Shown: piece by piece, positions 1,307-20,403 of the stretch
Position numbering within the stretch: the stretch's first letter is position 1
Layout: every line of letters starts with the position of its first letter
Source: a virus
Lineage: Duplodnaviria; Heunggongvirae; Uroviricota; Caudoviricetes
Strand: one strand, 5' to 3'
IMG/VR virus record: IMGVR_UViG_2778261068_000006
Span: 1-21,391 of that record
Length of the DNA: 21,391 nucleotides
The notes under the pieces: generated by a model
The model's database searches: none
What the model saw: only the letters and a program-made list of their open reading frames with translations
What the model was told of the DNA's origin: nothing
Program-made: the position numbers and the translations under genes

Positions 1307-3787
1307 TTAAAAATCAACCGGATTCGGGATCAGTTTTTGCCAGATTGCTGAAACGTATTTTGCCTGGTGACGGGCGTCATCCAGTGCATTGTGGCGAACG
1401 CCTTCGAATGGAATAACGGTTCCAGCATCAAAGTCGATTGTTTTTCCCAGCTCAACGATTGTGCGTACATCGCGATCGTTGTGGTAGCGCCACGGGCAGG
1501 GGATGTCCAGACGTTCGTATGAGGTGCGCAAAATTGCGTTATCGAAAGTTGCACCATTACCCCATACCTGAACGAATTTTTCATCTGAGTATTCGTTGAT
1601 GAACTCCCGAAACCGCGAAAGGGCATCCTTCAGTTTTACCTGGTCTGTTAAAATGGCAGCTCTGGCTTCACTGGACTGCTTCAGCCACCATTTGATGGTT
1701 CCACCGTCAGGAGCAGCCCCTGTATTCATTGCGTCAGTCAGACTGATAACGATATAAAATACTGGCCCGATTTCCCCTGTTTGTGGGTCGAAGAAAACCG
1801 CACCAATAACCACGATGGGCGCATTGGTGTTGGTTCCCATTGTTTCAAGGTCGATCATCAGGTGGTACCACACTCTGCTGGTGGATGTGATAACGTGATG
1901 ACCGTTCACCACAATTAAGGGATCTGCCGTCTCACCAGTTTCATTATCGCTGGCGTGGTCCTGAGCGCTGCCAGCATTCTCCTTGTGTGGATGTTCAGCG
2001 CCTTCCATTTCCTCCGGGTCATTTTCCTGAACTTCAACCTGATTCTCTTCATCGAATGTTTCCTGGTATGTTGCGTCGCCCATCACCGCGCCACAATCAG
2101 GGCAGTTGCCGCCACCGCTCTGACCGCAGGCGGTGCAGACTTTTTCCGGTTCCTGTTGCGCTACTGGCTCAGGTTGTTTCGTTTCTGGCTCGTTTTGTAA
2201 CGCATTTTGGCTGTTTTGTTCCGCTTTCTGGTCGTTCTGTTCCGATTCTTGCTGGTTCTGGTTTACAGAATCGCGGGTTTCAATCCCCTTCACCCATTTC
2301 GGATCATTCGGGTCGCTAATCCCTGCAACAAATTCTCCGCGAGAGGCAGCAAGCAACTTATCGGCGTCAGGCTGGCTGATATTGGCTGCCTGCATAATTT
2401 TGTTTACTTCGTCAGCGGTAACTTTTACCGGCTCTGGTTGTGCGGTCGTGTCAGATGCACCAGTATTTTGTTGTGAACCTGAGTACGTGCCGTTTTTACG
2501 GGCAAAATATTCTTCTTTCGTGATTTCAGTAGCCCCTGCAGCCAGCGCCTTATTCAGACCAGAAAGTTTGTTTGCACGACCATATTTTTCGCCATCCTTA
2601 TCGGTGAAGAGGAAGTAGAACGGCCCCTCACGCTCTACAGATGGTTCAGTTTCCAGCGCGCTTTCATTTTTTTGGGTATCAGATACTTCAGTTTCCACTG
2701 CATCAGTTTGTGCTGCTGACGGCTGGAGAATATCAGCAGTGCTCTGGTCTGTTTCTTCATCCTCAAACACGCCCTTTGTCGCCAGGTATTCAGTGATGTA
2801 TTTGTTCAGCGCCACGGGATCTTTGTGAATGTCGATCGGACGCTCACGGACAAGGCCAAAAATAGTCTGACGGTCGTAGCGAACGGCATCAGGTTGTTTG
2901 CGCATTGATGCGGAAATACGCTTCCAGTCTTCGCGATCTTTGTCGATAACCTCATTTTTTGCCCAGCGATGGATGCTGCCGTCAATGTTTCCGGCATCAA
3001 TATCACCAGGCCAGAAAGCGTAGGCCAGTTCTTCATCCAGTGTTTTCCATGTCTGCTTGTATTCGCGACGAATGACAGCAGTTACGGAGTCAGTTTTTCC
3101 TGCAGAGTTTTCAGTGCCTTGCCGGTTGACTCTGGCGCGGGCAAGATCGACGACGGAATTATATGCGCCACCTTCTTTGCGCTCCTTTTCCATGCGTTTT
3201 TTACGTTCGAGAAAATACGCCTGAACGTCGGGCCATTTGGCTGTTGGTTTTAAATCACGTCTGGCATCGTTGATGTACTCAATCTGACGCTCTGGATACA
3301 TGGCGTTAATTTCTCTGGTCCGGATAATTGCTTCAGCGAGGTGTCCATCAAAAGTCGTCATCTCGTCATCGCCGAGAAGCCCGCTTGCATTGATGACCAT
3401 ATCCACGGTGATGTTTTCATGTGTACCGAACCTGACAAGGACAGCAGCCCGCTTGTCTTCAGATAACTGATTAAAGTTAACAGTTTCTGTATCCGGTTCA
3501 GGGTCGACCGGAACAAAGGAAGCCGACTCCTCATTCCAGCGGTTTTCCTGCATATATTCGGAATCCCAGGAATCGAGAGCAGGGCGGGCCATGCCGGGTT
3601 TATCCTCGCAGACAAGAAATTTATAAGCACAGTCCTGAGCTTCCGGGTATTGTTCCAGAAATAACCAGCTAAATTTGGCTCTTGCCCGGCGTTCGTCGCC
3701 TGCTTCAATGGCAGTGGCCACAGGTTTGGCGCCTTCTGCTGTTGCCTGTTCGTCCGGAATGGCGGCGCAAATAAAGACTTTACTCAT
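1307..3787 (-). CDS. Large prophage exonuclease-like protein: C-terminal DnaQ-like DEDDh 3'-5' exonuclease domain, internal zinc ribbon, acidic Q/E/N-rich linker (resembles prophage 'exodeoxyribonuclease VIII-like' proteins)
   Basis: 826-aa ORF with SD (gagg) upstream; C-terminus has exonuclease motifs MIDLETMG (Exo I, D-x-E), WGNGATFDNAIL (Exo II), HNALDDARHQAKY (Exo III, H-x4-D); CTACGQSGGGNCPDCG zinc-ribbon motif; located in the lambda exo/bet position. Confidence 0.6.
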   Translation of the reverse strand: MSKVFICAAIPDEQATAEGAKPVATAIEAGDERRARAKFSWLFLEQYPEAQDCAYKFLVCEDKPGMARPALDSWDSEYMQENRWNEESASFVPVDPEPDTETVNFNQLSEDKRAAVLVRFGTHENITVDMVINASGLLGDDEMTTFDGHLAEAIIRTREINAMYPERQIEYINDARRDLKPTAKWPDVQAYFLERKKRMEKERKEGGAYNSVVDLARARVNRQGTENSAGKTDSVTAVIRREYKQTWKTLDEELAYAFWPGDIDAGNIDGSIHRWAKNEVIDKDREDWKRISASMRKQPDAVRYDRQTIFGLVRERPIDIHKDPVALNKYITEYLATKGVFEDEETDQSTADILQPSAAQTDAVETEVSDTQKNESALETEPSVEREGPFYFLFTDKDGEKYGRANKLSGLNKALAAGATEITKEEYFARKNGTYSGSQQNTGASDTTAQPEPVKVTADEVNKIMQAANISQPDADKLLAASRGEFVAGISDPNDPKWVKGIETRDSVNQNQQESEQNDQKAEQNSQNALQNEPETKQPEPVAQQEPEKVCTACGQSGGGNCPDCGAVMGDATYQETFDEENQVEVQENDPEEMEGAEHPHKENAGSAQDHASDNETGETADPLIVVNGHHVITSTSRVWYHLMIDLETMGTNTNAPIVVIGAVFFDPQTGEIGPVFYIVISLTDAMNTGAAPDGGTIKWWLKQSSEARAAILTDQVKLKDALSRFREFINEYSDEKFVQVWGNGATFDNAILRTSYERLDIPCPWRYHNDRDVRTIVELGKTIDFDAGTVIPFEGVRHNALDDARHQAKYVSAIWQKLIPNPVDF

Positions 3788-3879
3788 TTTGTTTTACCTC
3801 ATTACAGATTTAAGGGTGGACAAATCCCTGCCATTGCTGACATATAAAAATAAAACCGGATATTTATTATGGGGCTGTT

Positions 3880-4071
3880 TTAAAGGCCTGCCGGGATTTC
3901 GTTATTGTTCATGCGAATAATTTTGTCGACAGGATAACAGTTCCCGGGAATTTTTTGCTCTGCCGCGGCAGTCATGCATTCTTCCATTGAGTCATGTATG
4001 TCAATAACAAGATCAATCGGTTCACCAGAAACAAAAAAAACAGTCAGAACGAGTACAAATGCCGTATTCAT
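3880..4071 (-). CDS. ydfD: YdfD-like small membrane lysis protein (Qin prophage family)
   Basis: 63-aa product MNTAFVLVLTVFFVSGEPIDL...GNCYPVDKIIRMNNNEIPAGL matches remembered E. coli YdfD; ATGA start/stop overlap with dicB at 4068-4071. Confidence 0.7.
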   Translation of the reverse strand: MNTAFVLVLTVFFVSGEPIDLVIDIHDSMEECMTAAAEQKIPGNCYPVDKIIRMNNNEIPAGL

Positions 4072-4256
4072 TGCCTGCATCCTGTTTGCATCAGACGTAA
4101 ACGGGCCAGCATCGAAACAATGCATATTTTATTTAGCAGTTCCTGTTCGTGTTTTCTTTTATTAATGGCATCTTCAGTAAATATCTGATTGCTGATAGTG
4201 ACACCAATTTCAAAACAACCTTCAGACGTATTAACGTTTGGTAATAACGTTTCCAT
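4068..4256 (-). CDS. dicB: DicB cell-division inhibitor (MinC-activating)
   Basis: 62-aa product METLLPNVNTSEGCFEIGVTISNQIFTEDAINKRKHEQELLNKICIVSMLARLRLMQTGCRQ closely matches E. coli K-12 DicB; SD gagga upstream; the longer 97-aa ORF in the track is an in-frame upstream extension. Confidence 0.8.
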   Translation of the reverse strand: METLLPNVNTSEGCFEIGVTISNQIFTEDAINKRKHEQELLNKICIVSMLARLRLMQTGCRQ

Positions 4257-5980: not shown

Positions 5981-6208
5981 ATGCTTAAAGTTGACGCAAT
6001 TACTTTTTTTGGCAGCAAAACAAAACTTGCCAATGCCGCAGGAGTGAAACTGGCAAGTGTTGCTGCATGGGGGGAACTGGTTCCTGAAGGTCGCGCGATG
6101 CGCCTGCAAGAGGCATCCGGCGGGGAACTTCAGTACGACCCCAAAGTTTATGACGAATATCGTAAGGCAAAGCGGGCGGGGCGGTTGAACAATGAAAATC
6201 ACCCCTGA
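5981..6208 (+). CDS. dicC: Cro-like regulator DicC
   Basis: 75-aa product MLKVDAITFFGSKTKLANAAGVKLASVAAWGELVPEGRAMRLQEASGGELQYDPKVYDEYRKAKRAGRLNNENHP matches remembered DicC; SD gaggggg upstream; the track ORF starts 3 nt earlier at TTG. Confidence 0.8.
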   Translation: MLKVDAITFFGSKTKLANAAGVKLASVAAWGELVPEGRAMRLQEASGGELQYDPKVYDEYRKAKRAGRLNNENHP

Positions 6209-6713
6209 ACAGGTTTGTGAGGCTCTGGATGCCTGGGTATGCCGACCAGGAATGACACAGGAGCAGGCGACGATATTAATCACGGAAGCATTCTGGGCTC
6301 TGAAAGAACGCCCGAACATCGATGTTCAACGCGTCACGTTTGATGATGGCGCGGTTGATCAACGGGCGCTGGGCGTCAACCGGGTGAAGATATTCGAACG
6401 CTGGAAAGCTATCGACACCAGGGATAAGCGGGAAAAATTCACGGCGCTGATTCCGGCAATTATGGAGGCTATCCGGATCAGCGATTTCAGGTTGTATTGT
6501 GAAATTACTGACGGAAAAAGCATTACGTACATGATCGCCGGGTTAAACAAAGAATATGGCGATGTGGTGGAGTCCGGTCTGCTTTTGGCAGATCCTGCTG
6601 TTGTGGAGCGTGAGACTGACGAGCTTATAGAAAAAGCTATTGCTTTCAAGCATGCGTATCGTCAGCAATATCAACAAAAAGCCGGATGGAATTATGAGTC
6701 TTCTTTTTGCTGA
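6192..6713 (+). CDS. ydaT: YdaT-like protein (CII-like regulator/toxin family of Rac/CP-933P immunity regions)
   Basis: 173-aa ORF immediately after the cro-like gene; motif REKFTALIPAIMEAI resembles YdaT REKIQKLIPAILAIL; synteny repressor-cro-ydaT. Confidence 0.55.
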   Translation: MKITPEQVCEALDAWVCRPGMTQEQATILITEAFWALKERPNIDVQRVTFDDGAVDQRALGVNRVKIFERWKAIDTRDKREKFTALIPAIMEAIRISDFRLYCEITDGKSITYMIAGLNKEYGDVVESGLLLADPAVVERETDELIEKAIAFKHAYRQQYQQKAGWNYESSFC

Positions 6714-7659
6714 ACGCCCACTGGTTATTAACACGCAGCTGGCGATGAAAATTGGCCTGAATGAAGCCATTGTACTGCAGCAGCTGCATTACTGGTTGAG
6801 AGATACTAATTCCGGCATGGAATGTAACGGGGTTCGCTGGATTTATAACACAACAGAACAATGGCTGGAACAGTTCCCGTTCTGGTCAGAGTCAACGTTA
6901 AAACGCGCATTTGCAAGTCTGAAAACGCTGGGGCTTTTGCGTTGCGAAAAGCTCAACAAATCAAAGCGTGACATGACTAATTTTTACACGATTAATTACG
7001 AGAGTGAGCTTTTAGATGGTGGCAAAGTGAGCGAATCCATCAGGTCAAAATGCGCCGCTCCATCAGGTCAAAATGACACGATGGAAGAGGTCAAAATGGC
7101 ACGCTCCATTGGTTCAAAACGACCCAATGTCATCGGGTCAAAATGGCCTGATGATCTTACAGAGAATACAACAGAGATTACTACAGAGAATAAAAACACT
7201 TCTCGTCCGGAAGCTTCGCAACCGGACTCGCAGACGGCTGAACAGGATTTTTTAACCCGACACCCTGACGCGGTTGTGTTCAGTGCGAAAAAACGCCAGT
7301 GGGGAAGTCAGGAAGATTTGGCGTGCGCACAGTGGATCTGGGGACGAATCGTGAGTCTTTACGAGCAGGCTGCCAGCGATGATGGCGAGATCACGCGACC
7401 GAAAGAACCAAACTGGACCGCATGGGCCAATGATGTGCGCACAATGCGGATGCTGGATGGCAGAACTCACAGACAAATTTGCGAAATGTTTGGTCGGGTA
7501 CAGCGGGATCCATTCTGGGTAAAAAACGTCATGAGCCCGTCAAAGCTTCGTGAAAAATGGGATGAGCTGGTTATTCGTCTGGGGCGTCCGCCTGTACAGC
7601 GTTGTGTGAATCATATTTCTGAACCGGATACCGAAATTCCCCCAGGGTTCAGGGGGTAA
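6694..7659 (+). CDS. Replication initiation protein: N-terminal phage replisome-organiser-like DNA-binding domain, C-terminal DnaT (primosomal protein I)-like domain
   Basis: Start ATG 6694 preferred (MSLLFAERPL; the track ORF begins at 6640); C-terminus ...VNHISEPDTEIPPGFRG matches the E. coli DnaT C-terminus (...NTVSEPDSQIPPGFRG); iteron array lies inside the gene. Confidence 0.7.
   Translation: MSLLFAERPLVINTQLAMKIGLNEAIVLQQLHYWLRDTNSGMECNGVRWIYNTTEQWLEQFPFWSESTLKRAFASLKTLGLLRCEKLNKSKRDMTNFYTINYESELLDGGKVSESIRSKCAAPSGQNDTMEEVKMARSIGSKRPNVIGSKWPDDLTENTTEITTENKNTSRPEASQPDSQTAEQDFLTRHPDAVVFSAKKRQWGSQEDLACAQWIWGRIVSLYEQAASDDGEITRPKEPNWTAWANDVRTMRMLDGRTHRQICEMFGRVQRDPFWVKNVMSPSKLREKWDELVIRLGRPPVQRCVNHISEPDTEIPPGFRG
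7036..7145. repeat. Iteron array, probable phage origin of replication: five copies of GGTCAAAATG-like repeat at about 23-bp spacing
   Basis: Copies at 7043-7052, 7066-7075, 7089-7098 (ggtcaaaatg), 7111-7121 (ggttcaaaacg), 7136-7145 (gggtcaaaatg); first two share tccatcaggtcaaaatg; followed by A-rich stretch 7150-7200; embedded in initiator gene as for lambda ori in O. Confidence 0.65.
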
Positions 7660-7699: not shown

Positions 7700-8122
7700 G
7701 TGGCAAAAGTATTTACACAAGAAGAGCGAGAAAAAATTAAAGGGCAGGTGGTGGAACTCGTGCGCCAGAGCGGTCGAGAGACGTTACGGCAACTGGAAGC
7801 TAAAACAGGTGCGACAAGATATCTGATGAGTGTTCTCGCCAGAGAGCTGGTTGCCAGTGGCGATGTATACAACTCCGGCTACGGGTTATTCCCGTCTGAA
7901 CAGGCGCGTAAGGACTGGCAAAACGCCCGCAAAAAACTCTCGAGGGCAAAGGTGAAGAAACCTGCTGTGGTTGATCTGGACCTTATCTGGTCATTTCCTG
8001 ACGGAGAAATACGTCGCTACGACAGTCGTCTAAACATAATCTGTAGCGAGTGCCGTAAGAGAGAAGTGATGAAGCGTGTACTGATGTTTTATCGAGGAAA
8101 TATCCAGAAATTTGTTCGGTAA
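7700..8122 (+). CDS. Hypothetical protein (possible HTH; CxxC near C-terminus)
   Basis: 140-aa ORF, GTG start with strong SD aggagg at 7691-7696; no recognisable family. Confidence 0.55.
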   Translation: MAKVFTQEEREKIKGQVVELVRQSGRETLRQLEAKTGATRYLMSVLARELVASGDVYNSGYGLFPSEQARKDWQNARKKLSRAKVKKPAVVDLDLIWSFPDGEIRRYDSRLNIICSECRKREVMKRVLMFYRGNIQKFVR

Positions 8123-8259
8123 GCAAAATCAAAATGTAATAGCTCAAGTTTAAGTTGGTGTATCTACGGCGCAGAGCCATCGCCTCATCTGGCACTGCGC
8201 TAAAATCAAATTTTAGTTCCACTCTTTATTTGGTATCTGCTAAAACGCTACATAAGATT

Positions 8260-8532
8260 TTACTTTTTTAAAGAATAAGGGAATATGTGCACCATATTGG
8301 AGGCTAGTGGATATATTCCTATGCCACGAGTTGTCTTTTTTAGTTGATCTATGCTTGCTCCTTGATCGGGAGCTTGGCCTCCCCACACTGTAACCCCCTC
8401 AGGTATATCAATTGGGCGACTTTTGTTTTCATCTGTGATTTCAATAGTTTCTCCATTATTAAGTGTAATAATCAACGATGACACGTCTAGGTGTTGTGTA
8501 TTCCCATTTTTATTTTTAATGTCTATTTTCAT
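8260..8532 (-). CDS. Hypothetical protein in AT-rich island
   Basis: 90-aa ORF in markedly AT-rich segment (about 8123-8880); no clear SD; coding status uncertain. Confidence 0.3.
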   Translation of the reverse strand: MKIDIKNKNGNTQHLDVSSLIITLNNGETIEITDENKSRPIDIPEGVTVWGGQAPDQGASIDQLKKTTRGIGIYPLASNMVHIFPYSLKK

Positions 8533-8898
8533 GGCTATTTCATTATATGTTATCTGTGCTGGAGTAATAAGTTTACGGTATTAAGAAGCATTTTAACGAA
8601 ACAATCAACTGACTTATCAGTAAAGATAGCATTGTAATGCGATCTGATTGGTATCATCAGGACGCTTGTTCAAAAAAGGAGCATTAGTTGATCTTGAAAT
8701 TTTGCTCAAAATATCTAGCCTCTTGTTTAACTGCCAACTTTTGGGGGCAGTACACTCTGATGCTACACTCCTTGCAAGTTTCATTACCCCGACGTAAACA
8801 TTTATGACAGTTGCTGATTTCAAACGTCCTAAGTTGGAGCTCCCAAACGGGGCAAACAAACTACTATTACACTCTTGTTGTGCACCATGTTCCGGTGA

Positions 8899-9387
8899 AG
8901 TGATGGAGACTCTTCAGGCCTCAGGAATCGAGAACAACACGGTGTAGCGTTTATCGATGCTGATTACGACACTGACAACTGGTTTGAGCGAGCCAAAGGA
9001 ATGGAATGGGAGACCGAACGTGGGAGGCGTTGTACTATGTGTTTTGACATGCGTTTTGAGCGGACAGCGCTGTACGCCGCTGAAAATGGTTTCAGTGTGA
9101 TCAGCAGTTCACTGGGCATTTCACGCTGGAAAAATATGCAGCAGGTTAACGACTGCGGACGGCGAGCTGTCGCACATTATCCGGGAATTGTGTACTGGGA
9201 TTATAACTGGCGCAAGCAGGGGGGCTTGTCCCGCATGATTGAAATCAGCAAACGCGAACAATTCTATCAGCAGGAATATTGTGGCTGTGTGCATTCTCTG
9301 CGCGATACCAATCTACACCGCAAATCTCAGGGACGCCCTCTTATCAAAATTGGTCAACTCCACTACGGTAAAGAAGAGAAGGAGTGA
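8899..9387 (+). pseudogene. Probable 5'-truncated gene fragment encoding a Cys-rich protein (CxxC ... CGC motifs); family uncertain (possibly DUF208/QueH-like, unverified)
   Basis: Open frame runs from 8899 to stop at 9387 but the first start codon is ATG 9001; upstream in-frame sequence ([20 protein letters not shown]) looks coding yet has no start; abrupt AT-rich junction at about 8880. Confidence 0.4.
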
Positions 9388-9580
9388 TTTTATGGATCAC
9401 CTTTCTGATTGATTTCATATTGGCGAGGTTACGGGAGTTAAGTAGAATTGCTGCGGGTGCTTGAGGCTATCTGTCTCAGGCATGAATGCCAAAAGGCAGA
9501 TAGAGAAAAGCCCCAGTTAACATTACGCGTCCTGCAAGACGCTTAACATTAATCTGAGGCTCAATCTATGAACGGCAAAT

Positions 9581-10654
9581 CTAGGTTAGCCTCTTACGTG
9601 CCGAAAGGCAAGGAGTTGTATGGGTCCACCACATATTGCAATTTTTGTTCTCTCTTAAAATATATTCCACGGGTGTCATTAGCGCGAGCGCCTTATGGGG
9701 CCTTTTGCTGTTATACAGCACCAGATATTCCGCCAGCTTCTGATTAAATAGCGCCAGATCTTCAAAGAGTAAAATCTCATTAAATTCAATAAACTGCTCT
9801 CTTAACGTCCGGTTAAAACGTTCACAGATAGCGTTCATTTTTGGCGTGTAGGGATAGGTCCAGAGGTGTTTGATAGCGGCTTCCTGCAGCGTTTTGTCGA
9901 AGTTTCCCAGGAACTCTTTTCCGTTATCTGTGATTATCTGGCTGATACCGACCGGGAACAACCGGGCTGCGCGGCTGAAGAAGTGATTGACGATATCACT
10001 GTTGAGTGACGGCACAGCCAGCGCCAGCGCGTAATTGCTGCATTCGTCGATCATGGTGATGACATAGCGACGCAGTTCGCCCATTCTGAGCTCAATGGCG
10101 TCCATCCCAATGAGCTCACCTGTCTTTACCGGGCGATAGTGCTTTGGCCTGCGGGGTTTGGCAGACCGCTTTTTGACAAGCAGTGCCTTCCCCCGCGATC
10201 CCAGACGCACAGGTATCATCCGCATTTTATCATGTGCGGCAGCGATCATTCTGCCGATGGTGGAAACACTCGGACAGGCCAGATAGCGCTGTTCGCACCA
10301 GGGCTTCAGGCGAACAAAAATCTGCTCTTTACCGAGGTTCGGCAGCTCTGTCCTGAGGCGTCGAATCTCTTTCAGCACATCGGGATGCCAGTGTTTTTTT
10401 CGTCGCACCAGAGGTGCCTTACTGTGCGGGATTAGCCCCTCAGGTCCTTCCTTGTTCAGTAACTGACGCCACCAGTAAAGCGTGCGGCAGGACACGCCAA
10501 AGGCTTCAGAAGCCGCAGAAATACCGTGTTTATCCCAGAAGTGCAGAGCCTTCATTCTCATTGTTGCTGTATCAGCCATCACTGAAAGCCTCAACGCATA
10601 ATCGGCCGTTTGGTAGTACTTAGGATAGCCAACCATCAGATGCTGCATTTGCAT
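9581..10654 (-). CDS. DDE transposase (HTH + rve integrase-core), IS481-family-like
   Basis: 357-aa ORF; HTH GISAASEAFGVSCRTLYWWRQ; catalytic triad candidates D (MIDECS), D (ITDNGKEF), E (NAICERFNRT); likely true start at internal Met (MADTATMRMK, about 10579). Confidence 0.8.
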   Translation of the reverse strand: MQMQHLMVGYPKYYQTADYALRLSVMADTATMRMKALHFWDKHGISAASEAFGVSCRTLYWWRQLLNKEGPEGLIPHSKAPLVRRKKHWHPDVLKEIRRLRTELPNLGKEQIFVRLKPWCEQRYLACPSVSTIGRMIAAAHDKMRMIPVRLGSRGKALLVKKRSAKPRRPKHYRPVKTGELIGMDAIELRMGELRRYVITMIDECSNYALALAVPSLNSDIVNHFFSRAARLFPVGISQIITDNGKEFLGNFDKTLQEAAIKHLWTYPYTPKMNAICERFNRTLREQFIEFNEILLFEDLALFNQKLAEYLVLYNSKRPHKALALMTPVEYILRENKNCNMWWTHTTPCLSARKRLT

Positions 10655-12819: not shown

Positions 12820-13185
12820 ATGACTGAACGCATAGAATTTGCTTTGCCTTACCCGCCGACGGTGAATACCTACTGGCGACGTCATGGCAATACGTATTTC
12901 ATCTCGGAGGCGGGAAAGCGTTATCGCCGTGATGTGGCGCTAATTGTTCGCCAGCAGCGGCTGAAATTAAACCTGTCCGGAAGGCTGGCGATAAAGATTA
13001 TTGCAGAGCCACCGGATAAGCGCCGTCGTGACCTGGACAATATCCTGAAAGCACCACTGGATGCGCTGACGCATGCCGGACTACTCATCGACGACGAGCA
13101 GTTTGATGAAATCAATATTGTGCGCGGTCAGCTCGTTCCTGGTGGGCGGCTGGGGATAAAAATCACAGAACTGGAGTGCGCATGA
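12820..13185 (+). CDS. rusA: RusA Holliday-junction resolvase
   Basis: 121-aa product; PYPPTVNTYWRRH, PDKRRRDLDNILKAPLDALT and GGRLGIKITELE align to E. coli RusA (PWPPSNNRYYRH..., [31 protein letters not shown]). Confidence 0.9.
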   Translation: MTERIEFALPYPPTVNTYWRRHGNTYFISEAGKRYRRDVALIVRQQRLKLNLSGRLAIKIIAEPPDKRRRDLDNILKAPLDALTHAGLLIDDEQFDEINIVRGQLVPGGRLGIKITELECA

Positions 13186-13871
13186 ATAACCAGTATTTAC
13201 AGTTTGTGCGTGAGCAGCTCATTGTCGCTACCGCTGATTTGAGTGGGGCAACAAAAGGTCAGCTTGAAGCCTGGCAAGAGAATGCCATGTTCGATACAGG
13301 GCGTTACAGGCGAAAAAAAATCCGGTACCGCGATGAAGTGACTGGAAAAATGATAACGCGGGATAATCCACCAATCCCGGGGAAGCAATCGCTGGCGAAG
13401 GGGACGTCAATTCCTCTGGTCAGTCCGGTTGAGTTTTCGACATCATCGTGGCGGCGGGCTGTTCTGTCTCTTGAAGAGCATCATAAAGCCTGGTTGTTGT
13501 GGTGTTACGGCGGAAACATTTGCTGGGAGCATCAGATCGCGATAACGCAGTGGGTGTGGAATGAATTTAAAACCCAGTCTGGTACCAGAAAAATTGCAGG
13601 AAAAACGCTGGAGCGTGTGAAGAAGTTGATATGGCTGGCGGCACAGGATGTCAGAGGATGGGTTACCGGGAGCGAGGTCTACCAGCGGCAGGAGCTTGCC
13701 AGACTGTGTGGAGTTAAGCCAGACAACTGGAGCCATAATTATGCGAACTACTGGCGTGAGATGTGCGACATTTTTAAGAATCTCGATACAGAATCCTTGA
13801 TTTCCACCGTGAAAAAGAGAACGCAACAAAAAGCGATCTTTTCACGACGAGATATTGCAAAAGTCAATTAA
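13176..13871 (+). CDS. Late-gene antiterminator, Q-like (QuuQ-like)
   Basis: 231-aa ORF between rusA and a tR'-type terminator; alternative start ATG 13182 gives ATGA coupling with rusA stop; call is largely positional. Confidence 0.55.
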   Translation: MRMNNQYLQFVREQLIVATADLSGATKGQLEAWQENAMFDTGRYRRKKIRYRDEVTGKMITRDNPPIPGKQSLAKGTSIPLVSPVEFSTSSWRRAVLSLEEHHKAWLLWCYGGNICWEHQIAITQWVWNEFKTQSGTRKIAGKTLERVKKLIWLAAQDVRGWVTGSEVYQRQELARLCGVKPDNWSHNYANYWREMCDIFKNLDTESLISTVKKRTQQKAIFSRRDIAKVN

Positions 13872-13967: not shown

Positions 13968-14864
13968 ATGCATGCGTTTAATTACTTTTTGGACCATTGC
14001 AACATGAAATCAGATAAGGCAGAAAACTTAGAGAATCCACTCGAACGTAATGATTTTACAATTGATGACTTCCACCATGTTCTTAGGGAGTTTGATAAAG
14101 CTGTTTGTGAAGCCAATGCGGTAAGTCAGGGAGTAGGTGTGCGAATGGCTGAGGCTTATCAAGGTTGGTCAACATATATATTTGCACGAATTTGCATTCA
14201 TGCTTCGATTATGATTTCTAATGTTCCTAAGTCCAGATGGGCTAAGCGAGATTACGATTTCTGGGATTTTGCTTCTATAGCATCTCATGTCAGGGCGATC
14301 CTTGAAGCTGAACTTCTGTTTATGTATTTGTCTGAAGCACCAGATTCAGAAGAGGCTTGGTCAGCAAAGCTAAATGTTATGCACATGAATGATTGTGTAA
14401 AAAGGATAGAATTATTCACGCAAAGTGATAATACAGAAGCATTAGGGTTTTATAATGAGCAACAGAGTATAATTGCGGAAAGACTCAATAAAAACCCTGC
14501 TTTTTTATCACTTGATAGTGGTACTAGGAAACGTTGCTTGTCAGGCAAGGCTTTAACAATTCCTAATAGAGACGATTTATTGATTAAACTAGGGAAAGAC
14601 CCAAAATCGTTTAAAGTGATGTTTGATTTTCTATCGCATTACACACACATACTCCCTATGTCATATTACAAAATGGAACCGAATGGGAGAGGGACTGGTT
14701 GTTTTAACAAGTTCGATTTTGGATATATAATAATGGGTATGTTGCTATGTACTGAATCTTTGATTAAGTGTACTGAACGGTTGGTGGATATTTTCCCTGA
14801 TGTTAAACGGTTAAGAAAAGGAACTAAATCAAAATTTACATTGGGCCCTAAACCAACAAAATAA
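13968..14864 (+). CDS. Hypothetical protein, AT-rich late-region cargo gene in the Q-tR'-holin slot; function unknown
   Basis: 298-aa ORF (alternative start ATG 14004, MKSDKAENL...); clearly lower GC than flanking phage genes; no signal peptide or TM segment evident; no family recognised. Confidence 0.7.
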   Translation: MHAFNYFLDHCNMKSDKAENLENPLERNDFTIDDFHHVLREFDKAVCEANAVSQGVGVRMAEAYQGWSTYIFARICIHASIMISNVPKSRWAKRDYDFWDFASIASHVRAILEAELLFMYLSEAPDSEEAWSAKLNVMHMNDCVKRIELFTQSDNTEALGFYNEQQSIIAERLNKNPAFLSLDSGTRKRCLSGKALTIPNRDDLLIKLGKDPKSFKVMFDFLSHYTHILPMSYYKMEPNGRGTGCFNKFDFGYIIMGMLLCTESLIKCTERLVDIFPDVKRLRKGTKSKFTLGPKPTK

Positions 14865-15030: not shown

Positions 15031-15417
15031 ATGTCCGATCCTATTTCCGGTACTGGGTTAGCCGGAGGAGTTCTAACGGGAGTTAGTATTTATGGCCTGT
15101 TTACAGGTACGGATTATGGTGTTGTATTTGGCGCATTTGCAGGAGCTGTTTTCTACATAGCGACAACTGCAGATCTGACGGCAACGCTCCGACTGGCATA
15201 TTTCATCGTGTCATATATCGCTGGGGTTTTGTGTTCTGGGTTAGTTGGTTCCAAACTGGCGAATTTGACCGGATACAGTGATAAACCTCTGGATGCTATT
15301 GGTGCCGTAATCGTCTCTGCTTTAGCCGTTAAAATCCTGACGTTTCTGAATAACCAGGGTATCGGTTCGCTGGTGGCGCTCATAACGCGCCGGGGAGGTT
15401 CAGGTGGTACAAAATGA
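15031..15417 (+). CDS. Holin (multi-TM small membrane protein)
   Basis: 128-aa ORF with SD gaggtgg; hydrophobic segments GVLTGVSIYGLF, FGAFAGAVFYIATT, AYFIVSYIAGVLCSGLVG, AIGAVIVSALAV; first gene of lysis cassette. Confidence 0.7.
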   Translation: MSDPISGTGLAGGVLTGVSIYGLFTGTDYGVVFGAFAGAVFYIATTADLTATLRLAYFIVSYIAGVLCSGLVGSKLANLTGYSDKPLDAIGAVIVSALAVKILTFLNNQGIGSLVALITRRGGSGGTK

Positions 15418-15685
15418 CCTATCGGCAACTTTTAATGCATTGCTTTGTGCTGGGGTAGTGTTAACCCTGATGTTTTACCGTCGCGGCGACTCGCGACATC
15501 GGCCGTGGATATCTCGTTTAGCGTGGCTGCTTACGGTCATGTACAGTGCCGTTCCGCTGGCGTATCTGTGCGGTATTTACCCGTACTCATCATGGGGCAC
15601 TATCGGGGCCAACATTATTTTCCTCTCTGTGCTGGTAGCCGTCAGAGGCAACGTGGCACGTCTGGTTGATCATCTGAGGCGCTAA
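15404..15685 (+). CDS. Small membrane protein of lysis cassette (holin/antiholin-like)
   Basis: 93-aa ORF, GTG start with SD ggggagg; overlaps holin stop by 14 nt and endolysin start by 1 nt; two to three predicted TM helices. Confidence 0.5.
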   Translation: MVQNDLSATFNALLCAGVVLTLMFYRRGDSRHRPWISRLAWLLTVMYSAVPLAYLCGIYPYSSWGTIGANIIFLSVLVAVRGNVARLVDHLRR

Positions 15686-16299
15686 TGAACCAATCACAAT
15701 TTCAGCAGGCGGCTGGTATCAGCGCCGGGCTTTCTGCGCGCTGGTTTCCGCACATTGATGCGGCATTGAAAGAGTTTGAAATCACAGCAGTTAACGATCA
15801 GGCCATGTTCATTGCACAAGTTGGGCACGAATCGGCCGGTTTTACCTCGCTGGTGGAGAGCTTTAACTATTCGGTAGAGGGTCTGAAGAAAACCTTTGGT
15901 AAACGCCTGACTCCGTATCAGTGTGAAATGTTGGGACGTATCGATGGTAGGCAGATAGCCCACCAGCAGCAAATAGCCAATTTGGTTTACGGTAACCGCC
16001 TGGGGAATAACAGCCAAGGGGATGGCTGGAAATATCGTGGTCGTGGCCTGCTTCAAATCACCGGCCGGGAGAACTACGCCAAATGCGGTACGGCGCTGAA
16101 GCTTGATCTAATCGGTACACCAGAGTTGCTGACGCAGGAGAAGCATGCTGCCCGTTCTGCTGCTTGGTTTTTCACGTTACGTGGTTGTCTCCTTTACTCG
16201 GGAGAGCTGGAGCGCGTCACGCAGATTATTAATGGCGGGCAGAACGGCATTAAAGACCGTCGTGAACGTTACGCCAAAGCTAAAGCCGCACTGGTGTGA
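15685..16299 (+). CDS. Endolysin, glycoside hydrolase family 19 (chitinase-like lysozyme)
   Basis: 204-aa product with GH19 motifs FIAQVGHESAGF and YRGRGLLQITGRENY. Confidence 0.8.
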   Translation: MNQSQFQQAAGISAGLSARWFPHIDAALKEFEITAVNDQAMFIAQVGHESAGFTSLVESFNYSVEGLKKTFGKRLTPYQCEMLGRIDGRQIAHQQQIANLVYGNRLGNNSQGDGWKYRGRGLLQITGRENYAKCGTALKLDLIGTPELLTQEKHAARSAAWFFTLRGCLLYSGELERVTQIINGGQNGIKDRRERYAKAKAALV

Positions 16300-16306
16300 G
16301 GTCACT

Positions 16307-16576
16307 ATGGGGCTTGAAATGATTATTGGCTTAGTTCTTGCTGCACTGGCAGCAATTGCTGGTGCTTTTGGTCTGGGTAAATCACGCGGTACCAGAATCG
16401 CTGAAACAAAAGCAGACCAGCAACGTACGGAAGAACGTGCAGCGGCTATTGAAGCGGTCGCCAAACGCAGGGTAGAGACAATAAAAGGGGCTAGGGATGT
16501 ACAGCAGACTGTTAACCATCTTTCTGATGACGATGTTGACCACGAGTTGCGCGAAAGCTATACCCGCAAAGCCTGA
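16307..16576 (+). CDS. Putative i-spanin (Rz-like)
   Basis: 89-aa product with N-terminal TM (MIIGLVLAALAAIAGAFGLG) then charged helical region; SD gaggt; follows endolysin. Confidence 0.5.
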   Translation: MGLEMIIGLVLAALAAIAGAFGLGKSRGTRIAETKADQQRTEERAAAIEAVAKRRVETIKGARDVQQTVNHLSDDDVDHELRESYTRKA

Positions 16577-16739
16577 AGTAACGGACACGACCTGTGACTG
16601 GGTGAACATCATCTACCTAACAGAGCACGATATTACCGTGCTGGATAAACAGACGAAGCGGGACATATTGGCGCATAACAAATCAGTGCAGGCTAACTGC
16701 AGGAAGAAAGCGGGGCATGAACGCAGAGAACTTAAGTAA
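16497..16739 (+). CDS. Putative o-spanin lipoprotein (Rz1-like), overlapping the i-spanin in a different frame
   Basis: 80-aa ORF with signal-like N-terminus ending LTTSC (imperfect lipobox); overlaps 3' end of Rz-like gene by about 80 nt. Confidence 0.45.
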   Translation: MYSRLLTIFLMTMLTTSCAKAIPAKPEVTDTTCDWVNIIYLTEHDITVLDKQTKRDILAHNKSVQANCRKKAGHERRELK

Positions 16740-16954
16740 CGCGCATTACATCTATAACGAGATGAAAGAGCTACAGCGACAGAAAGGTATACTGGAAAGT
16801 GGTGCTGGGCTTGGTGTGACAATCCAGTCTGCCTATTAAGATAATGCCTTTATTGAGGCTATACGCCCGCATGCAGTTGCTGAACTTGACCGCCACATTG
16901 AGGAAAAGAAATCCGTGCTGGTTAATTTGGGAGCTTCCTTTTTTATACGAGCAT

Positions 16955-16986
16955 AATAAAGCGGGTTGGAAACCCGCCTAAAGCAC
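16955..16986 (-). terminator. Intrinsic terminator for the antisense YfbU-like gene
   Basis: gcgggtt-gga-aacccgc hairpin (16961-16977) followed on the minus strand by TTTATTAT; not T-rich on the plus side. Confidence 0.55.
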
Positions 16987-17526
16987 TTAGAAACTGCGTG
17001 GAGCTGTGGAAAGAATGGATGCCAGTTCTTCCTTTGATAAATCCCAGCTTCGATTTACAGCGTCAATTTTCTTAAACTCATCAAGCATTGCGTTATAGAG
17101 ATGTTCTGTACGTGAATGAGTATTGGCAATGGGCTGTTTCTGTTCGGGGAAGCGATCAATTTTCTGATACGCCTCAATGATACTGAAGTAATCGCATTCA
17201 TTATTACCGTCGAAACCTGGGAGCTGAATTTCCCCATCATGTATTTTTAGATGATGGTCACGGACTAATTCTTTTTGCTCGTCATCACTAAGTTTCCTGA
17301 AAGCATTGGAAAGTCCGCGGTACATATTCAAGACAGCAGTAACAAAATCACGATCTTCTTTACTTGGTTCATCAACATCCAAATGTGAATATTCGGCCTT
17401 CATAACCCAATCATTACCAGATGACACAGCATATTTTACAAGCTGTGGATCAATATCAGTTTCGATACCTAGGTGGATGGCAATGTCACATAACAAAATG
17501 GTATTGATTTTATCCTTAATATCCAT
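16987..17526 (-). CDS. YfbU (UPF0304)-family protein, antisense moron between lysis and packaging genes
   Basis: 179-aa AT-rich ORF; EDRDFVTAVLNMYRGL, PGFDGNNECDYF and ANTHSRTEHLYNAML align to E. coli YfbU (EETCRTIIDIMEMYHAL, LGFDAATEARYL, GTHGFNAQTPMWEKYQRML); opposite orientation to all flanking late genes, own terminator. Confidence 0.6.
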   Translation of the reverse strand: MDIKDKINTILLCDIAIHLGIETDIDPQLVKYAVSSGNDWVMKAEYSHLDVDEPSKEDRDFVTAVLNMYRGLSNAFRKLSDDEQKELVRDHHLKIHDGEIQLPGFDGNNECDYFSIIEAYQKIDRFPEQKQPIANTHSRTEHLYNAMLDEFKKIDAVNRSWDLSKEELASILSTAPRSF

Positions 17527-17664
17527 GAGTTAACCCTCTGAAGTAAAAAGTAATATCTACACCCGTTAGCTCATGAAGTCTATTGATCTGGCTCATATCA
17601 GCGGCAAATCTATTTCATGGAGATACTCAATGCAGGTCACTTTTGATTTATATAAGGGCGAAAC

Positions 17665-18015
17665 ATGCCAGCACTAATCCCACGCGCCTGCCGTAAACGT
17701 GGATGTGCAGGTACAACCACAGACAGTTCTGGTTACTGCGATAAACATCGTGGCGAAGGATGGGCACAGCATCAACGCGGACTAAGTCGCCACCAGCGTG
17801 GCTATGGCACGAAATGGGATGCCATACGTGCGCGCATACTGAAGCGTGATAATCATCTGTGTCAGAACTGCCTGCGCAATGGGAGAGCCGTTGAAGCCAG
17901 AACTGTGGACCACATCATTCCGAAAGCTCATGGTGGCACGGATGCAGACAGTAACCTGCAGAGTCTGTGCTGGCCCTGCCATAAAGCAAAAACAGCGCGC
18001 GAACGCATCAATTGA
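17665..18015 (+). CDS. HNH endonuclease (terminase-associated)
   Basis: 116-aa product with Cys-rich N-terminus and HNH core DHIIPKAHGGTDADSNLQSLCWPCHKAK; immediately upstream of terS/terL as in HK97-like phages. Confidence 0.85.
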   Translation: MPALIPRACRKRGCAGTTTDSSGYCDKHRGEGWAQHQRGLSRHQRGYGTKWDAIRARILKRDNHLCQNCLRNGRAVEARTVDHIIPKAHGGTDADSNLQSLCWPCHKAKTARERIN

Positions 18016-18163
18016 TAACAGTTCCCATCTGTAGGGGAGGGGCGGGTCAAATCTCTGCAACTCTGGCTGCTCAGTACCGCCGCCTGACCCATCCTCACAT
18101 CGCCGCAGGTTCGAAAACTTTTTTTTGGGAATGTGATTAAACGATTGATAGGTAAAACCGATT
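18016..18163. other. Candidate cos/packaging-site region between HNH and terS
   Basis: Noncoding 148 bp containing gggcgggtca ... ccgccgcctgaccc inverted symmetry and palindromic ggttcgaaaac followed by T8; call is positional by analogy with HK97. Confidence 0.35.
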
Positions 18164-18646
18164 ATGTCAGGACCCCCGAAAACCCCGCCACGCCTGCATT
18201 TGATACGAGGCAACCCCTCAAAGCGCCCCGTTAAAGACCCAAAAAAAATCGCTAAAAAGGATGAAAAAGGTCTCCCTAAAATTCCGCAACATTTAGGGGC
18301 ACAGGGGAAGTACTGGTTCAGGCGAATGGCGGAAGAACTGAATGCGGAAGGGATCATTTCTCAGCTTGATGCGCGTGCACTCGAGTTACTGGTGGAAGCC
18401 TACACCGAATACCGGCATCACTGCGAAACACTCGATGTTGAGGGGTATACCTACCGCACGGAAACGCAGAGCGGTGATGTACTGATTAAGGCGCACCCCG
18501 CGGCGGCAATGAAAGCGGATGCCTGGAAGCGGATCCGGGCAATGCTTGCAGAGTTTGGTATGTCACCGGCAAGCCGGGCTAAAGTAAATATCGCCGGACC
18601 GGATGATGTTGATCCGCTGGCGGAGCTTTTAAAAGCGAGAGACTGA
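18164..18646 (+). CDS. Terminase small subunit (P27 family)
   Basis: 160-aa ORF immediately upstream of and ATGA-coupled to the terminase large subunit; basic N-terminus. Confidence 0.8.
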   Translation: MSGPPKTPPRLHLIRGNPSKRPVKDPKKIAKKDEKGLPKIPQHLGAQGKYWFRRMAEELNAEGIISQLDARALELLVEAYTEYRHHCETLDVEGYTYRTETQSGDVLIKAHPAAAMKADAWKRIRAMLAEFGMSPASRAKVNIAGPDDVDPLAELLKARD

Positions 18647-20403
18647 TGGCAAAAGTGGCTGACGGGATCCGCTACGCCGAACGTGTTGTTGCAGGAGAAA
18701 TTGTTGCTGGCGAATTTGTCCGTCTGGCCTGCCAGCGTTTTCTTGATGATCTGAAGTACGGCGAAGAGCGGGGGATTTATTTCAGTGAACCCCGTGCGCA
18801 GCACATCCTGAATTTCTACAAATTTGTACCTCATGTAAAAGGGGTGCTGGCAGGCCAGCCCATTGACTTGATGGACTGGCATGTATTTATCCTCATTAAT
18901 ATTTTTGGTTTTGTCATTCCGCTGGTGAATGAAGATACCGGGGAAGTTGTCATGCGCAGCGATGGCAGCGGACGTCCGGTGATGGTGCGCCGGTTCCGGA
19001 CGGCGTACAACGAAGTCGCCCGTAAAAACGCAAAATCAACTCTGTCATCGGGTATCGGCCTGTATATGACGGGGGCAGATGGTGAAGGCGGAGCTGAGGT
19101 GTATTCAGCCGCAACCACGCGTGACCAGGCCAGAATCGTGTTTGAAGACGCCAAAAATATGGTCAGAAAAGCCCGGTCGACACTCGGGCGGTTGTTTGAT
19201 TTCAACAAGCTGGCGATTTACCAGGAGCAGAGCGCATCAAAATTTGAACCGCTTTCTTCGGATGCAAACAACCTGGATGGTCTGAACATCCACTGCGCCA
19301 TTATTGATGAGCTGCATGCACATAAAACCCGTGACGTGTGGGACGTTCTGGAAACGGCAACCGGTGCCCGTCTGCAGTCCCTTTTATTTGGTATCACCAC
19401 GGCAGGGTTTAACAAGGAAGGGATTTGTTACGAGCAGCGTGATTACGCCATCAAGGTATTGCGTGGCTATAACAGCGACGTGGAGGGCGCGGTAAAAGAC
19501 GACTCCTACTTTGCGATTATTTACACCCTCGATGAGGGAGATGATCCGTTTGATGAAACGGTCTGGCAGAAAGCGAATCCTGGCCTGGGCATCTGTAAAC
19601 GCTGGGATGATCTGCGTCGCCTGGCAAAAAAAGCGAAGGAGCAGGTCTCTGCGCGGGTGAATTTTTTCACGAAACACATGAATGTGTGGGTGACAGCAGA
19701 GTCTGCCTGGATGGACATGATTAAGTGGGAGAAATGCGAATACATTGCCCCACGACATGAGCTGAAAACGTATCCCATGTGGGTCGGCGTTGACCTTGCT
19801 CATAAGATTGATATCTGTGCGGCGACAAAACTCTGGCGAACGGATAACGGGCATGTTCATGCCGATTTTAAATTCTGGCTCCCGGAAGGACGGCTGGAAC
19901 GATGCTCGCGGCAGCAGGCAGAACTTTACCGGAAGTGGGCGGAGATGGATAAGCTGATTCTGACGGATGGTGATGTTATCGATCATGCTCAGATAAAAAG
20001 TGACTTACTGGAATGGATTGGTGGTGAAAACCTCAGGGAACTGGGATTTGACCCGTGGAGCGCAATGCAGTTCAGCCTGGCACTGGCTGAAGAAGGGATA
20101 CCGCTGGTGGAGGTTCCGCAGACGGTCCGCAATCTGTCAGAGGCCATGAAGGAAACGGAATCACTGGTCTATGCGGGGCGTTTCCATCACAGCAATCATC
20201 CGGTCATGAACTGGATGATGTCTAACGTTACGGTAAAACCGGACAAAAACGACAATATCTTCCCGAATAAATCCACGCCGGAAGCCAAAATCGACGGCCC
20301 TGTTGCGATGTTTACAGCAATGAGCCGGATGCTGGTCAATGGTGGTGAACCGGAGCCGGATCTGTCTGAACATCTGGTCAGCGTGGGCATCCGCTCGCTT
20401 TAA
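18646..20403 (+). CDS. Terminase large subunit (HK97-like)
   Basis: 585-aa ORF; size, position and nuclease-region acidic residues consistent with TerL. Confidence 0.9.

Follow-up and report, generated by a model that had tools for sequence, protein, structure and literature searches.

In phage lambda and Escherichia coli, respectively, the genes bor and iss run antisense in the interval that separates the last lysis gene from the packaging/cos region, where each forms a self-contained unit with its own terminator; their products are outer-membrane lipoproteins. Here, we analyzed a gene that occupies the same slot in the same orientation and is equally self-contained, in a virus sequence of 21,391 nucleotides (IMG/VR record IMGVR_UViG_2778261068_000006, positions 1 to 21,391; "the window" refers to this whole stretch). 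The window is a lambdoid E. coli prophage with 99% identity to the prophage adjoining potC in strain cS33a. The slot that iss fills is exactly this one, upstream of the same HNH gene. The product of the gene studied here (the yfbU-like gene) is unrelated to Bor and Iss and is predicted to be all-helical, so serum resistance is not its expected function.

One of its closest known counterparts is E. coli YfbU (UPF0304; b2294; PDB 1WPB and 4LR3), with which it shares a two-domain all-helical architecture, the G-F-D...E...N residues, and a similar size. Unlike E. coli YfbU, it has an extra segment (the HLKIHDGE region) and a GFDGNNE/NTH signature, and whereas E. coli yfbU is a conserved chromosomal locus beside ackA-pta (yfbV/ackA), the yfbU-like gene is prophage cargo. 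Structures of YfbU/UPF0304 have been solved since 2004, and we know of no biochemical activity for it. E. coli yfbU has been reported as a "death gene" on which mazEF-mediated killing after DNA damage depends (PMC2646832).

Kamadhenu is the one stand-alone mobile YfbU protein to have been tested. It is a 180-amino-acid (aa), YfbU-domain-only protein of the lactococcal plasmid pUCCL624_130 that constitutes a single-gene, abortive-infection-like antiphage system (Grafakou et al. 2024, PMC11381338). In every phage that escaped Kamadhenu, a single-strand annealing protein (SSAP) of the Sak-like kind was mutated at G22 (PMC12184496). A 2026 review lists the YfbU domain without a mechanistic link to defense (PMC13064643). 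Kamadhenu and the yfbU-like protein are alike in size (about 180 aa), in containing the PF03887/YfbU domain only, in residing on a mobile element, and in having no partner gene. They differ in that the former belongs to a lactococcal plasmid, in another host phylum, and the latter to an E. coli prophage. We find firm support for the yfbU-like gene as a single-gene cargo ("moron") cassette of a lambdoid prophage of the P27 packaging type, seated in the iss/bor slot. The cassette is independently terminated, convergent to the late operon, and exchanged as a unit. As to function, the analogy with Kamadhenu leads us to favor, tentatively and at somewhat less than even chances, a lysogen-expressed, single-protein, abortive-infection defense gene of the prophage.

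The yfbU-like gene, its product, and its signals

Every late gene flanking the yfbU-like gene is on the plus strand in the window gene map. As described in a first-pass annotation made from the sequence alone, the 179-aa open reading frame (ORF) runs opposite to all of them, is AT rich (GC content of 0.38 to 0.40, versus 0.51 to 0.53 in the flanks), and is separated from the HNH gene by a divergent intergenic region of 138 bp (Table 1). That annotation had also likened the protein to YfbU and named the PF03887/UPF0304 profile as the check. In the Pfam profile search, PF03887 (YfbU) matched residues 47 to 172 with an E value of 4.7e-12 (46.7 bits against a gathering cutoff of 25) and was the sole Pfam family above threshold. 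The pairwise part of the claim fared less well, as K-12 YfbU is 20% identical to the 179-aa protein, with a marginal BLASTP E value of 0.03. The kinship is therefore significant only at the level of profile and fold. An AlphaFold2 model built with 30 homologues was confident and all-helical, with a predicted local distance difference test (pLDDT) score of 88.7, and fold comparison recovered in it the two-domain all-helical fold of YfbU. Phage family phrog_6084 (of unknown function) matches the protein end to end (1e-82; PHROGs), and RefSeq annotates it as "YfbU family protein" (WP_001532432.1).

The ORF is a real gene under purifying selection. The ratio of nonsynonymous to synonymous substitution rates (dN/dS) against homologues is approximately 0.12 to 0.15, and dS is saturated already at 83% aa identity. 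A chance antisense ORF is rejected by the profile match, the fold, and dN/dS. The gene is not a housekeeping yfbU orthologue, since the protein scored 35.3 bits against an equivalog cutoff of 90 for NCBIfam NF003936. In an alignment of phage, chromosomal-island, Enterococcus-plasmid, and K-12 members, residues G104, F105, D106, E110, and N135 were invariant. The mobile clades additionally share a GFDGNNE...N(T/S)H signature, in which H137 is replaced by Q in K-12 YfbU. Judged by these motifs, the 179-aa protein belongs to a mobile clade that is marked by GFDGNNE...NTH and distinct from housekeeping YfbU. We recognized no signal peptide or lipobox in the protein, and the Bor family gave no Pfam match at E values up to 1; the N terminus (MDIKDKINTILLCD) is charged and predicted to be helical. 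The protein is acidic and is predicted to be cytoplasmic and all-helical. Two other matches were set aside as spurious. A Pfam match to the restriction endonucleases Cfr10I/Bse634I (E value of 0.002; 17.9 bits, below the cutoff of 27) misfits the all-helical model, and a sequence-only search of solved structures returned only a stathmin repeat.

An intrinsic terminator on the gene's own strand had also been proposed, and it held up. The hairpin (-13.2 kcal/mol; z = -3.08) was not equaled by any of 200 shuffled sequences and is followed by UAUUAU, whereas the plus-strand reading of 16959-16979 has no T tract. A hairpin of differing sequence follows the stop codon directly in all nine of the diverged homologue loci examined. 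The consensus scan missed the window terminator because its U tract is interrupted, and it does call the corresponding hairpin a terminator in two loci (L100 and L003). Upstream of the gene, the ribosome-binding site is kept as CAGAGGGTTA in L100, and CAGAGAGGTA stands at the equivalent place in L102. The 95 or so nucleotides of the spacer nearest the ATG are conserved with L100 despite saturated dS in the coding sequence.

The expectation of independent transcription signals stood for the terminator; for the promoter, prediction gave no canonical sigma-70 site. A weak candidate, TTGCCG-17-AATAGA, agrees in position and spacing with TTGATG-17-TATAGA in L100 and with ATGACC-17-TATAGT in L003, the last of which is called by the promoter scan. 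The scan called no promoter upstream of the L100 homologue either. From these sequence matches we infer that TTGCCG-17-AATAGA may be the promoter of the yfbU-like gene. Reading the 138-bp region by eye, we saw no LexA-box-like CTGT-N8-ACAG.

An exchangeable cassette in the lysis-packaging slot

The yfbU-like gene is part of an AT-rich module of about 1 kb (GC content of 0.38 to 0.44, versus 0.51 to 0.53 in the flanks). Positions 16648 to 17800 are 97% identical to IMG/VR locus L113, which belongs to a prophage of another lysis type (class II holin/lysozyme/Rz). The left edge of the module cuts into the o-spanin gene (window type) at its 3' end. At the right edge, homology starts exactly at the HNH ATG (17665) in genomes that lack the yfbU-like gene. 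The shared block reaching to 16648, together with the start of homology at 17665, indicates that the unit moves as a module.

To the right of the yfbU-like gene, a 15-codon ORF with its own GGAGA (window positions 17630-17677, plus strand; MQVTFDLYKGETCQH) overlaps the HNH start. In its ribosome-binding site and initial codons, it matches the beginning of an L102 gene (485 aa, without a Pfam match) that is the divergent neighbor of the yfbU homologue there. By this resemblance, the 15-codon ORF looks like a recombination scar of an earlier right-hand neighbor of the cassette.

We then surveyed the slot in 5,426 complete E. coli genomes. The HNH gene was found in 1,052 of them and the yfbU-like gene in 225, every copy being at least 95% identical and chromosomal, and 224 of the 225 copies were linked to this HNH gene. 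An iss-HNH junction was present in 553 genomes; the one such locus that was read, in EC958, has iss in antisense orientation. In 188 genomes and in phage vB_EcoM-606R7, the slot was empty and a gap of 43 bp separates Rz from HNH. Small hypothetical ORFs fill the slot in other genomes, phiP27 included. The proposed equivalence with the bor position is thus borne out by iss, a bor homologue, lying beside the same HNH gene. The survey of occupants that had been suggested alongside it gave iss, the yfbU-like gene, small hypothetical ORFs, or nothing. The location given earlier, between the spanins and HNH/cos, needs one correction: the gene does lie between the spanins and HNH, but cos lies beyond HNH. 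The lysis-packaging junction of P27-type prophages behaves as a cargo hotspot with at least three states, which is useful for interpreting iss as a "virulence marker."

The same arrangement recurs in relatives. Full-length homologues with about 50 to 83% identity came from Enterobacter, Providencia, Superficieibacter/Hafnia-like sources, and metagenomes, and every one of them runs antisense in the gap from the last lysis gene to the first packaging gene. Their packaging modules are of at least four types (HNH plus Terminase_4 plus TerL; Nu1-like DUF1441 plus GpA; Terminase_2 plus Terminase_6; and one other), and in the Nu1-like DUF1441 plus GpA loci, a lambda-like cos sequence lies directly upstream of the yfbU homologue. 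IMG/VR contains 168 stretches with a gene for a relative, and we classified 78 loci by BLAST against labeled lysis and terminase proteins. In 55 loci, the gene has opposite-strand flanking genes on both sides, one of the terminase module upstream and one for lysis downstream. One of the two flanks and nothing contradictory was found in 17 more, so that 72 of the 78 fit the antisense lysis-packaging arrangement; two loci deviate. These counts do not represent independent events, because E. coli prophages that are nearly identical to one another make up many of the close loci. Even among members at 28 to 39% identity, 25 of 31 keep the slot. The gene family thus keeps the lysis-packaging slot across many prophages.

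Comparison of the homologue loci revealed no neighbor gene conserved beside the phage-clade yfbU gene. Small ORFs on the 3' side of the homologues were considered as a partner and rejected, as they are mutually unrelated and one is an o-spanin gene, which directly abuts the yfbU homologue in L084. More cargo surrounds the lysis cassette in L102, whose yfbU homologue is 63% identical (5990-7488 and 9538-10170). The lysis genes and the yfbU homologue are separated by a pair encoding a PP2C phosphatase and a Ser/Thr kinase, with HicAB as a second pair upstream of the holin. This extra cargo supports the junction as a multicargo hotspot.

Relatives were found in only 4 of 50,697 deposited phage genomes. 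Two of the four are induced phages of E. coli, and the other two records belong to a single P2-like phage of Yersinia. Virions of the induced phages vB_EcoS-689R5 and 611R1 package the yfbU-like gene. Alignment with phiP27 places cos between HNH and TerS, and the gene would accordingly lie about 0.55 kb from the right end of virion DNA. Packaging and a position close to one end of the injected DNA would both suit a lytic-cycle or early-infection accessory gene (for counterdefense or host takeover) that has its own promoter and is silent in the lysogen, and the protein is small and acidic (pI 4.9), like many phage-encoded inhibitors. Several observations make such a role distinctly unlikely. 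Lysogen-expressed morons (bor and iss) classically converge, as this gene does, with very strong late transcription, relatives reside on plasmids and chromosomal islands that have no lytic cycle, and the gene is dispensable to the phage, given the empty slot in E. coli genomes and in phage 606R7.

Candidate functions and the wider YfbU family

Under the favored reading of a Kamadhenu-like defense gene, the yfbU-like gene would be transcribed in the lysogen from a weak promoter of its own, as bor and iss are, while Q-modified late transcription would read through it from the other side. By analogy with Kamadhenu, the protein would act alone in an abortive-infection-type defense against superinfecting phages. 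Its trigger or target could be the recombination or replication functions of the invader (an SSAP or DNA-damage-like intermediates), upon which the infected cell would undergo growth arrest or death. The resident prophage would not trigger the system itself because it encodes no recognizable SSAP; among its larger early ORFs, we found no RecT, Red-beta, Erf, or Rad52-type SSAP Pfam domain.

The close relatives also bear on a role in host physiology. An exhaustive HMMER pass gave 539 representative clusters (50% identity) at E values of ≤1e-3. Only four of them reached ≤1e-30, which makes the close enterobacterial prophage clade a narrow one within a large and diverse family. This clade is limited to the Enterobacterales, hosts that also have a chromosomal yfbU. 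This would suit a lysogenic conversion factor that acts on the host and not on phages. The phage protein, as a diverged paralogue, would mimic, titrate, or replace host YfbU and thereby alter cell fate after DNA damage, for example by blocking MazF/YfbU-linked death and so allowing SOS-induced prophage development to be completed; it could also confer a stress or host-niche benefit like that of iss. The YfbU fold and family-invariant residues of the phage protein agree with this idea, as does the fact that iss, the main alternative occupant of the slot, is a host interaction gene rather than a defense gene. So does the reported requirement of host yfbU for mazEF-mediated death after DNA damage (PMC2646832). 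However, hetero-oligomer formation is uncertain at 20% identity to host YfbU, family members at 28 to 39% identity hold the same prophage slot, and others are found on plasmids and in defense islands of bacteria far from the Enterobacterales. We consider a host-physiology role unlikely, though less so than a lytic-cycle role.

Beyond the close clade, tblastn located the family on plasmids (274 Enterococcus records, small Acinetobacter and Mycobacterium plasmids, Xanthomonas, and others), and many phyla carry it in chromosomal islands as well. Most of the Enterococcus plasmid genes are from E. faecium (e.g., L110, positions 3113-4150, from Aus0085 plasmid p3). In the two Enterococcus plasmids that were read, the YfbU-family gene precedes a hypothetical ORF of 170 aa and a resolvase gene, with IS6/IS1216 flanks and fic nearby. 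Among 78 chromosomal loci (within L004-L082), 28 carry a distant YfbU clade of about 185 aa, upstream of which, at a median distance of about 10 bp, an ORF of about 167 aa runs in the same direction (e.g., L048, 7378-7986 with 7983-8540). The shorter ORF has an N-terminal membrane helix, as judged by eye, and no Pfam or PADLOC match, and the pair may constitute an undescribed two-gene system. In 5 of the 78 loci, an adjacent FRG-domain gene matches PADLOC candidate PDC-S15, and serine or tyrosine recombinases lie near several. Both the ~167-aa ORF and the FRG/PDC-S15 neighbor were rejected as partners of the phage gene, as they are confined to distant chromosomal clades.

The prevalence of the family on very small Acinetobacter and Mycobacterium plasmids and in the Enterococcus plasmid records could mean that the gene is a selfish stabilization or addiction element (toxin- or antitoxin-like), or simply neutral hitchhiking cargo. 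The tight two-gene operon of the distant clade, with its small putative membrane-helix protein, and the pseudogene debris in the cassette point the same way. We regard this as the least probable of the alternatives, since the phage-clade gene has no conserved partner, and strong purifying selection across hosts and prophage backgrounds speaks against neutrality.

Returning to the abortive-infection defense reading, we scanned with PADLOC the ORFs around chromosomal members, 148 near (<2.5 kb) and 148 far (5 to 8 kb). Matches included HerA (7e-269), a CBASS cyclase (1.5e-138), PARIS AriAB (3e-138), IetA (1e-126), MADS, LmuB, and PtuA, which suggests that distant chromosomal YfbU members lie in defense islands. 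As both the near and the far sets hold bona fide defense genes, the far set failed as a negative control, and no enrichment statistic is given.

Several points weigh against the defense reading. The defense-island signal comes from distant relatives (25 to 35% identity) and lacks a matched background control. The slot also carries nondefense cargo such as iss, so position alone is no sign of defense. The 138-bp region has no sigma-70 promoter on its minus strand according to the consensus scan, and to our knowledge no biochemical activity has been assigned to the YfbU fold. The protein is likened to Kamadhenu by Pfam domain, size, and fold and not by sequence, and the antiphage phenotype and SSAP-linked escape are features of Kamadhenu alone. 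No match in Lactococcus was obtained by plasmid tblastn with three different queries or by protein searches with an Enterococcus homologue and the family profile. Finally, no PADLOC v2.0.0 model matches the 179-aa protein, in a release that predates Kamadhenu. Membership in a known defense system was set aside on this basis, K-12 YfbU and a distant-clade member being likewise without a match.

If the defense reading holds, a prophage-borne single-gene system would be added to the defense repertoire of E. coli, and a lactococcal plasmid system would extend to Gram-negative prophages, with a hint at what housekeeping YfbU senses. The compact single-gene cassette resides in a tractable host, and the natural "empty" and "iss" alleles of the slot are ready controls. 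More broadly, and with less assurance than for the prophage gene itself, the mobile GFDGNNE/NTH clade may consist of widespread single-protein abortive-infection sensors or effectors that respond to phage recombination proteins or DNA-damage-like intermediates. The slot allele would then be an alternative to iss/bor that lambdoid prophages of the Enterobacterales have kept for a very long time, because members of about 30% identity still occupy it. The 20-year-old question of UPF0304/YfbU function would become directly testable in E. coli with lambda-family phages and their recombinases (Red-beta, RecT, or Erf), and the answer would also cover housekeeping E. coli YfbU, linked to death after DNA damage.

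Prophage background and side observations

The prophage comprises, in order, an integrase, early genes, Q, an ORF with weak similarity to DUF5677, holins, an endolysin, spanins, HNH, the cos region, and the terminase subunits (Table 1).

Table 1. Features of the window in and around the yfbU-like cassette, with positions as numbered in the window
Feature	Position	Strand	Description and basis
Antiterminator Q	13176-13871	+	
Two holins	15031-15685	+	
GH19 endolysin	15685-16299	+	
Spanins, end of the lysis cassette (left flank)	16307-16739	+	i-spanin-like gene, 16307-16576; overlapping o-spanin lipoprotein gene, 16497-16739; from ORFs and ...LTTSC lipobox
Exchangeable AT-rich cargo module, ~1 kb	16648..17664		o-spanin 3' remnant, pseudo-ORF, terminator, yfbU-like gene, and upstream region
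Pseudo-ORF, ~80 codons	16717..16957	+	In-frame TAA at codon 41; RefSeq pseudogene with internal stop; travels with the module
Intrinsic-terminator-like hairpin	16950..16979	-	Stem 16959-16979, 9 bp, loop UCC, then UAUUAU; begins 7 nt past the stop codon
yfbU-like coding sequence	16987..17526	-	ATG start, 179 aa, 20.7 kDa, acidic pI 4.9, YfbU fold
Presumed promoter region, divergent spacer	17527..17664		138 bp up to the HNH ATG; sequence conservation with L100
Ribosome-binding site GAGGG	17534..17538	-	7 nt before the ATG; read from the sequence
Weak candidate promoter TTGCCG-17-AATAGA	17579..17607	-	-10 ends 52 nt upstream of the ATG; -10 without final T
HNH endonuclease of P27-type packaging module (right flank)	17665-18015	+	PF01844, 60 bits
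cos region	18031-18090 (approx.)		Alignment with the phiP27 HNH-TerS spacer, which bears the annotated cos site
Terminase small subunit TerS (Terminase_4, P27 family)	18164-18646	+	PF05119, 89 bits
TerL	18646-20403	+	

A 298-aa ORF lies between Q and the holins (13968-14864, plus strand), where stx2e occupies the corresponding slot in phiP27. RefSeq names it DUF5677, although the match to that family is below threshold (23.5 bits against a cutoff of 27), and it has no PADLOC match. This position is a second cargo slot of the prophage, with an uncharacterized gene. A DUF5677 gene from Bacillota was one of nine candidates assayed in a 2025 preprint and is absent from the five reported as active (PMC12632615). 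As the Bacillota candidate was not among the actives, we rejected a reading of this neighbor as a defense gene.

In the early left region, an 826-aa protein (1307-3787, minus strand) carries a C-terminal Rv2179c-like DEDDh 3'-5' exonuclease domain (residues 642 to 816; E value of 6e-69), and no domain was assigned over its N-terminal ~640 residues. The nin-like region holds an insertion sequence transposase ORF of 357 aa with rve, rve_3, and HTH_32 domains (9581-10654, minus strand). About 200 bp from it, a 128-aa ORF (9001-9387, plus strand) matches only the C-terminal half of the epoxyqueuosine reductase QueH (PF02677 positions 76 to 174 of 175; E value of 2e-32) and, from the extent of this match, looks like a truncated queH-like gene within the prophage.

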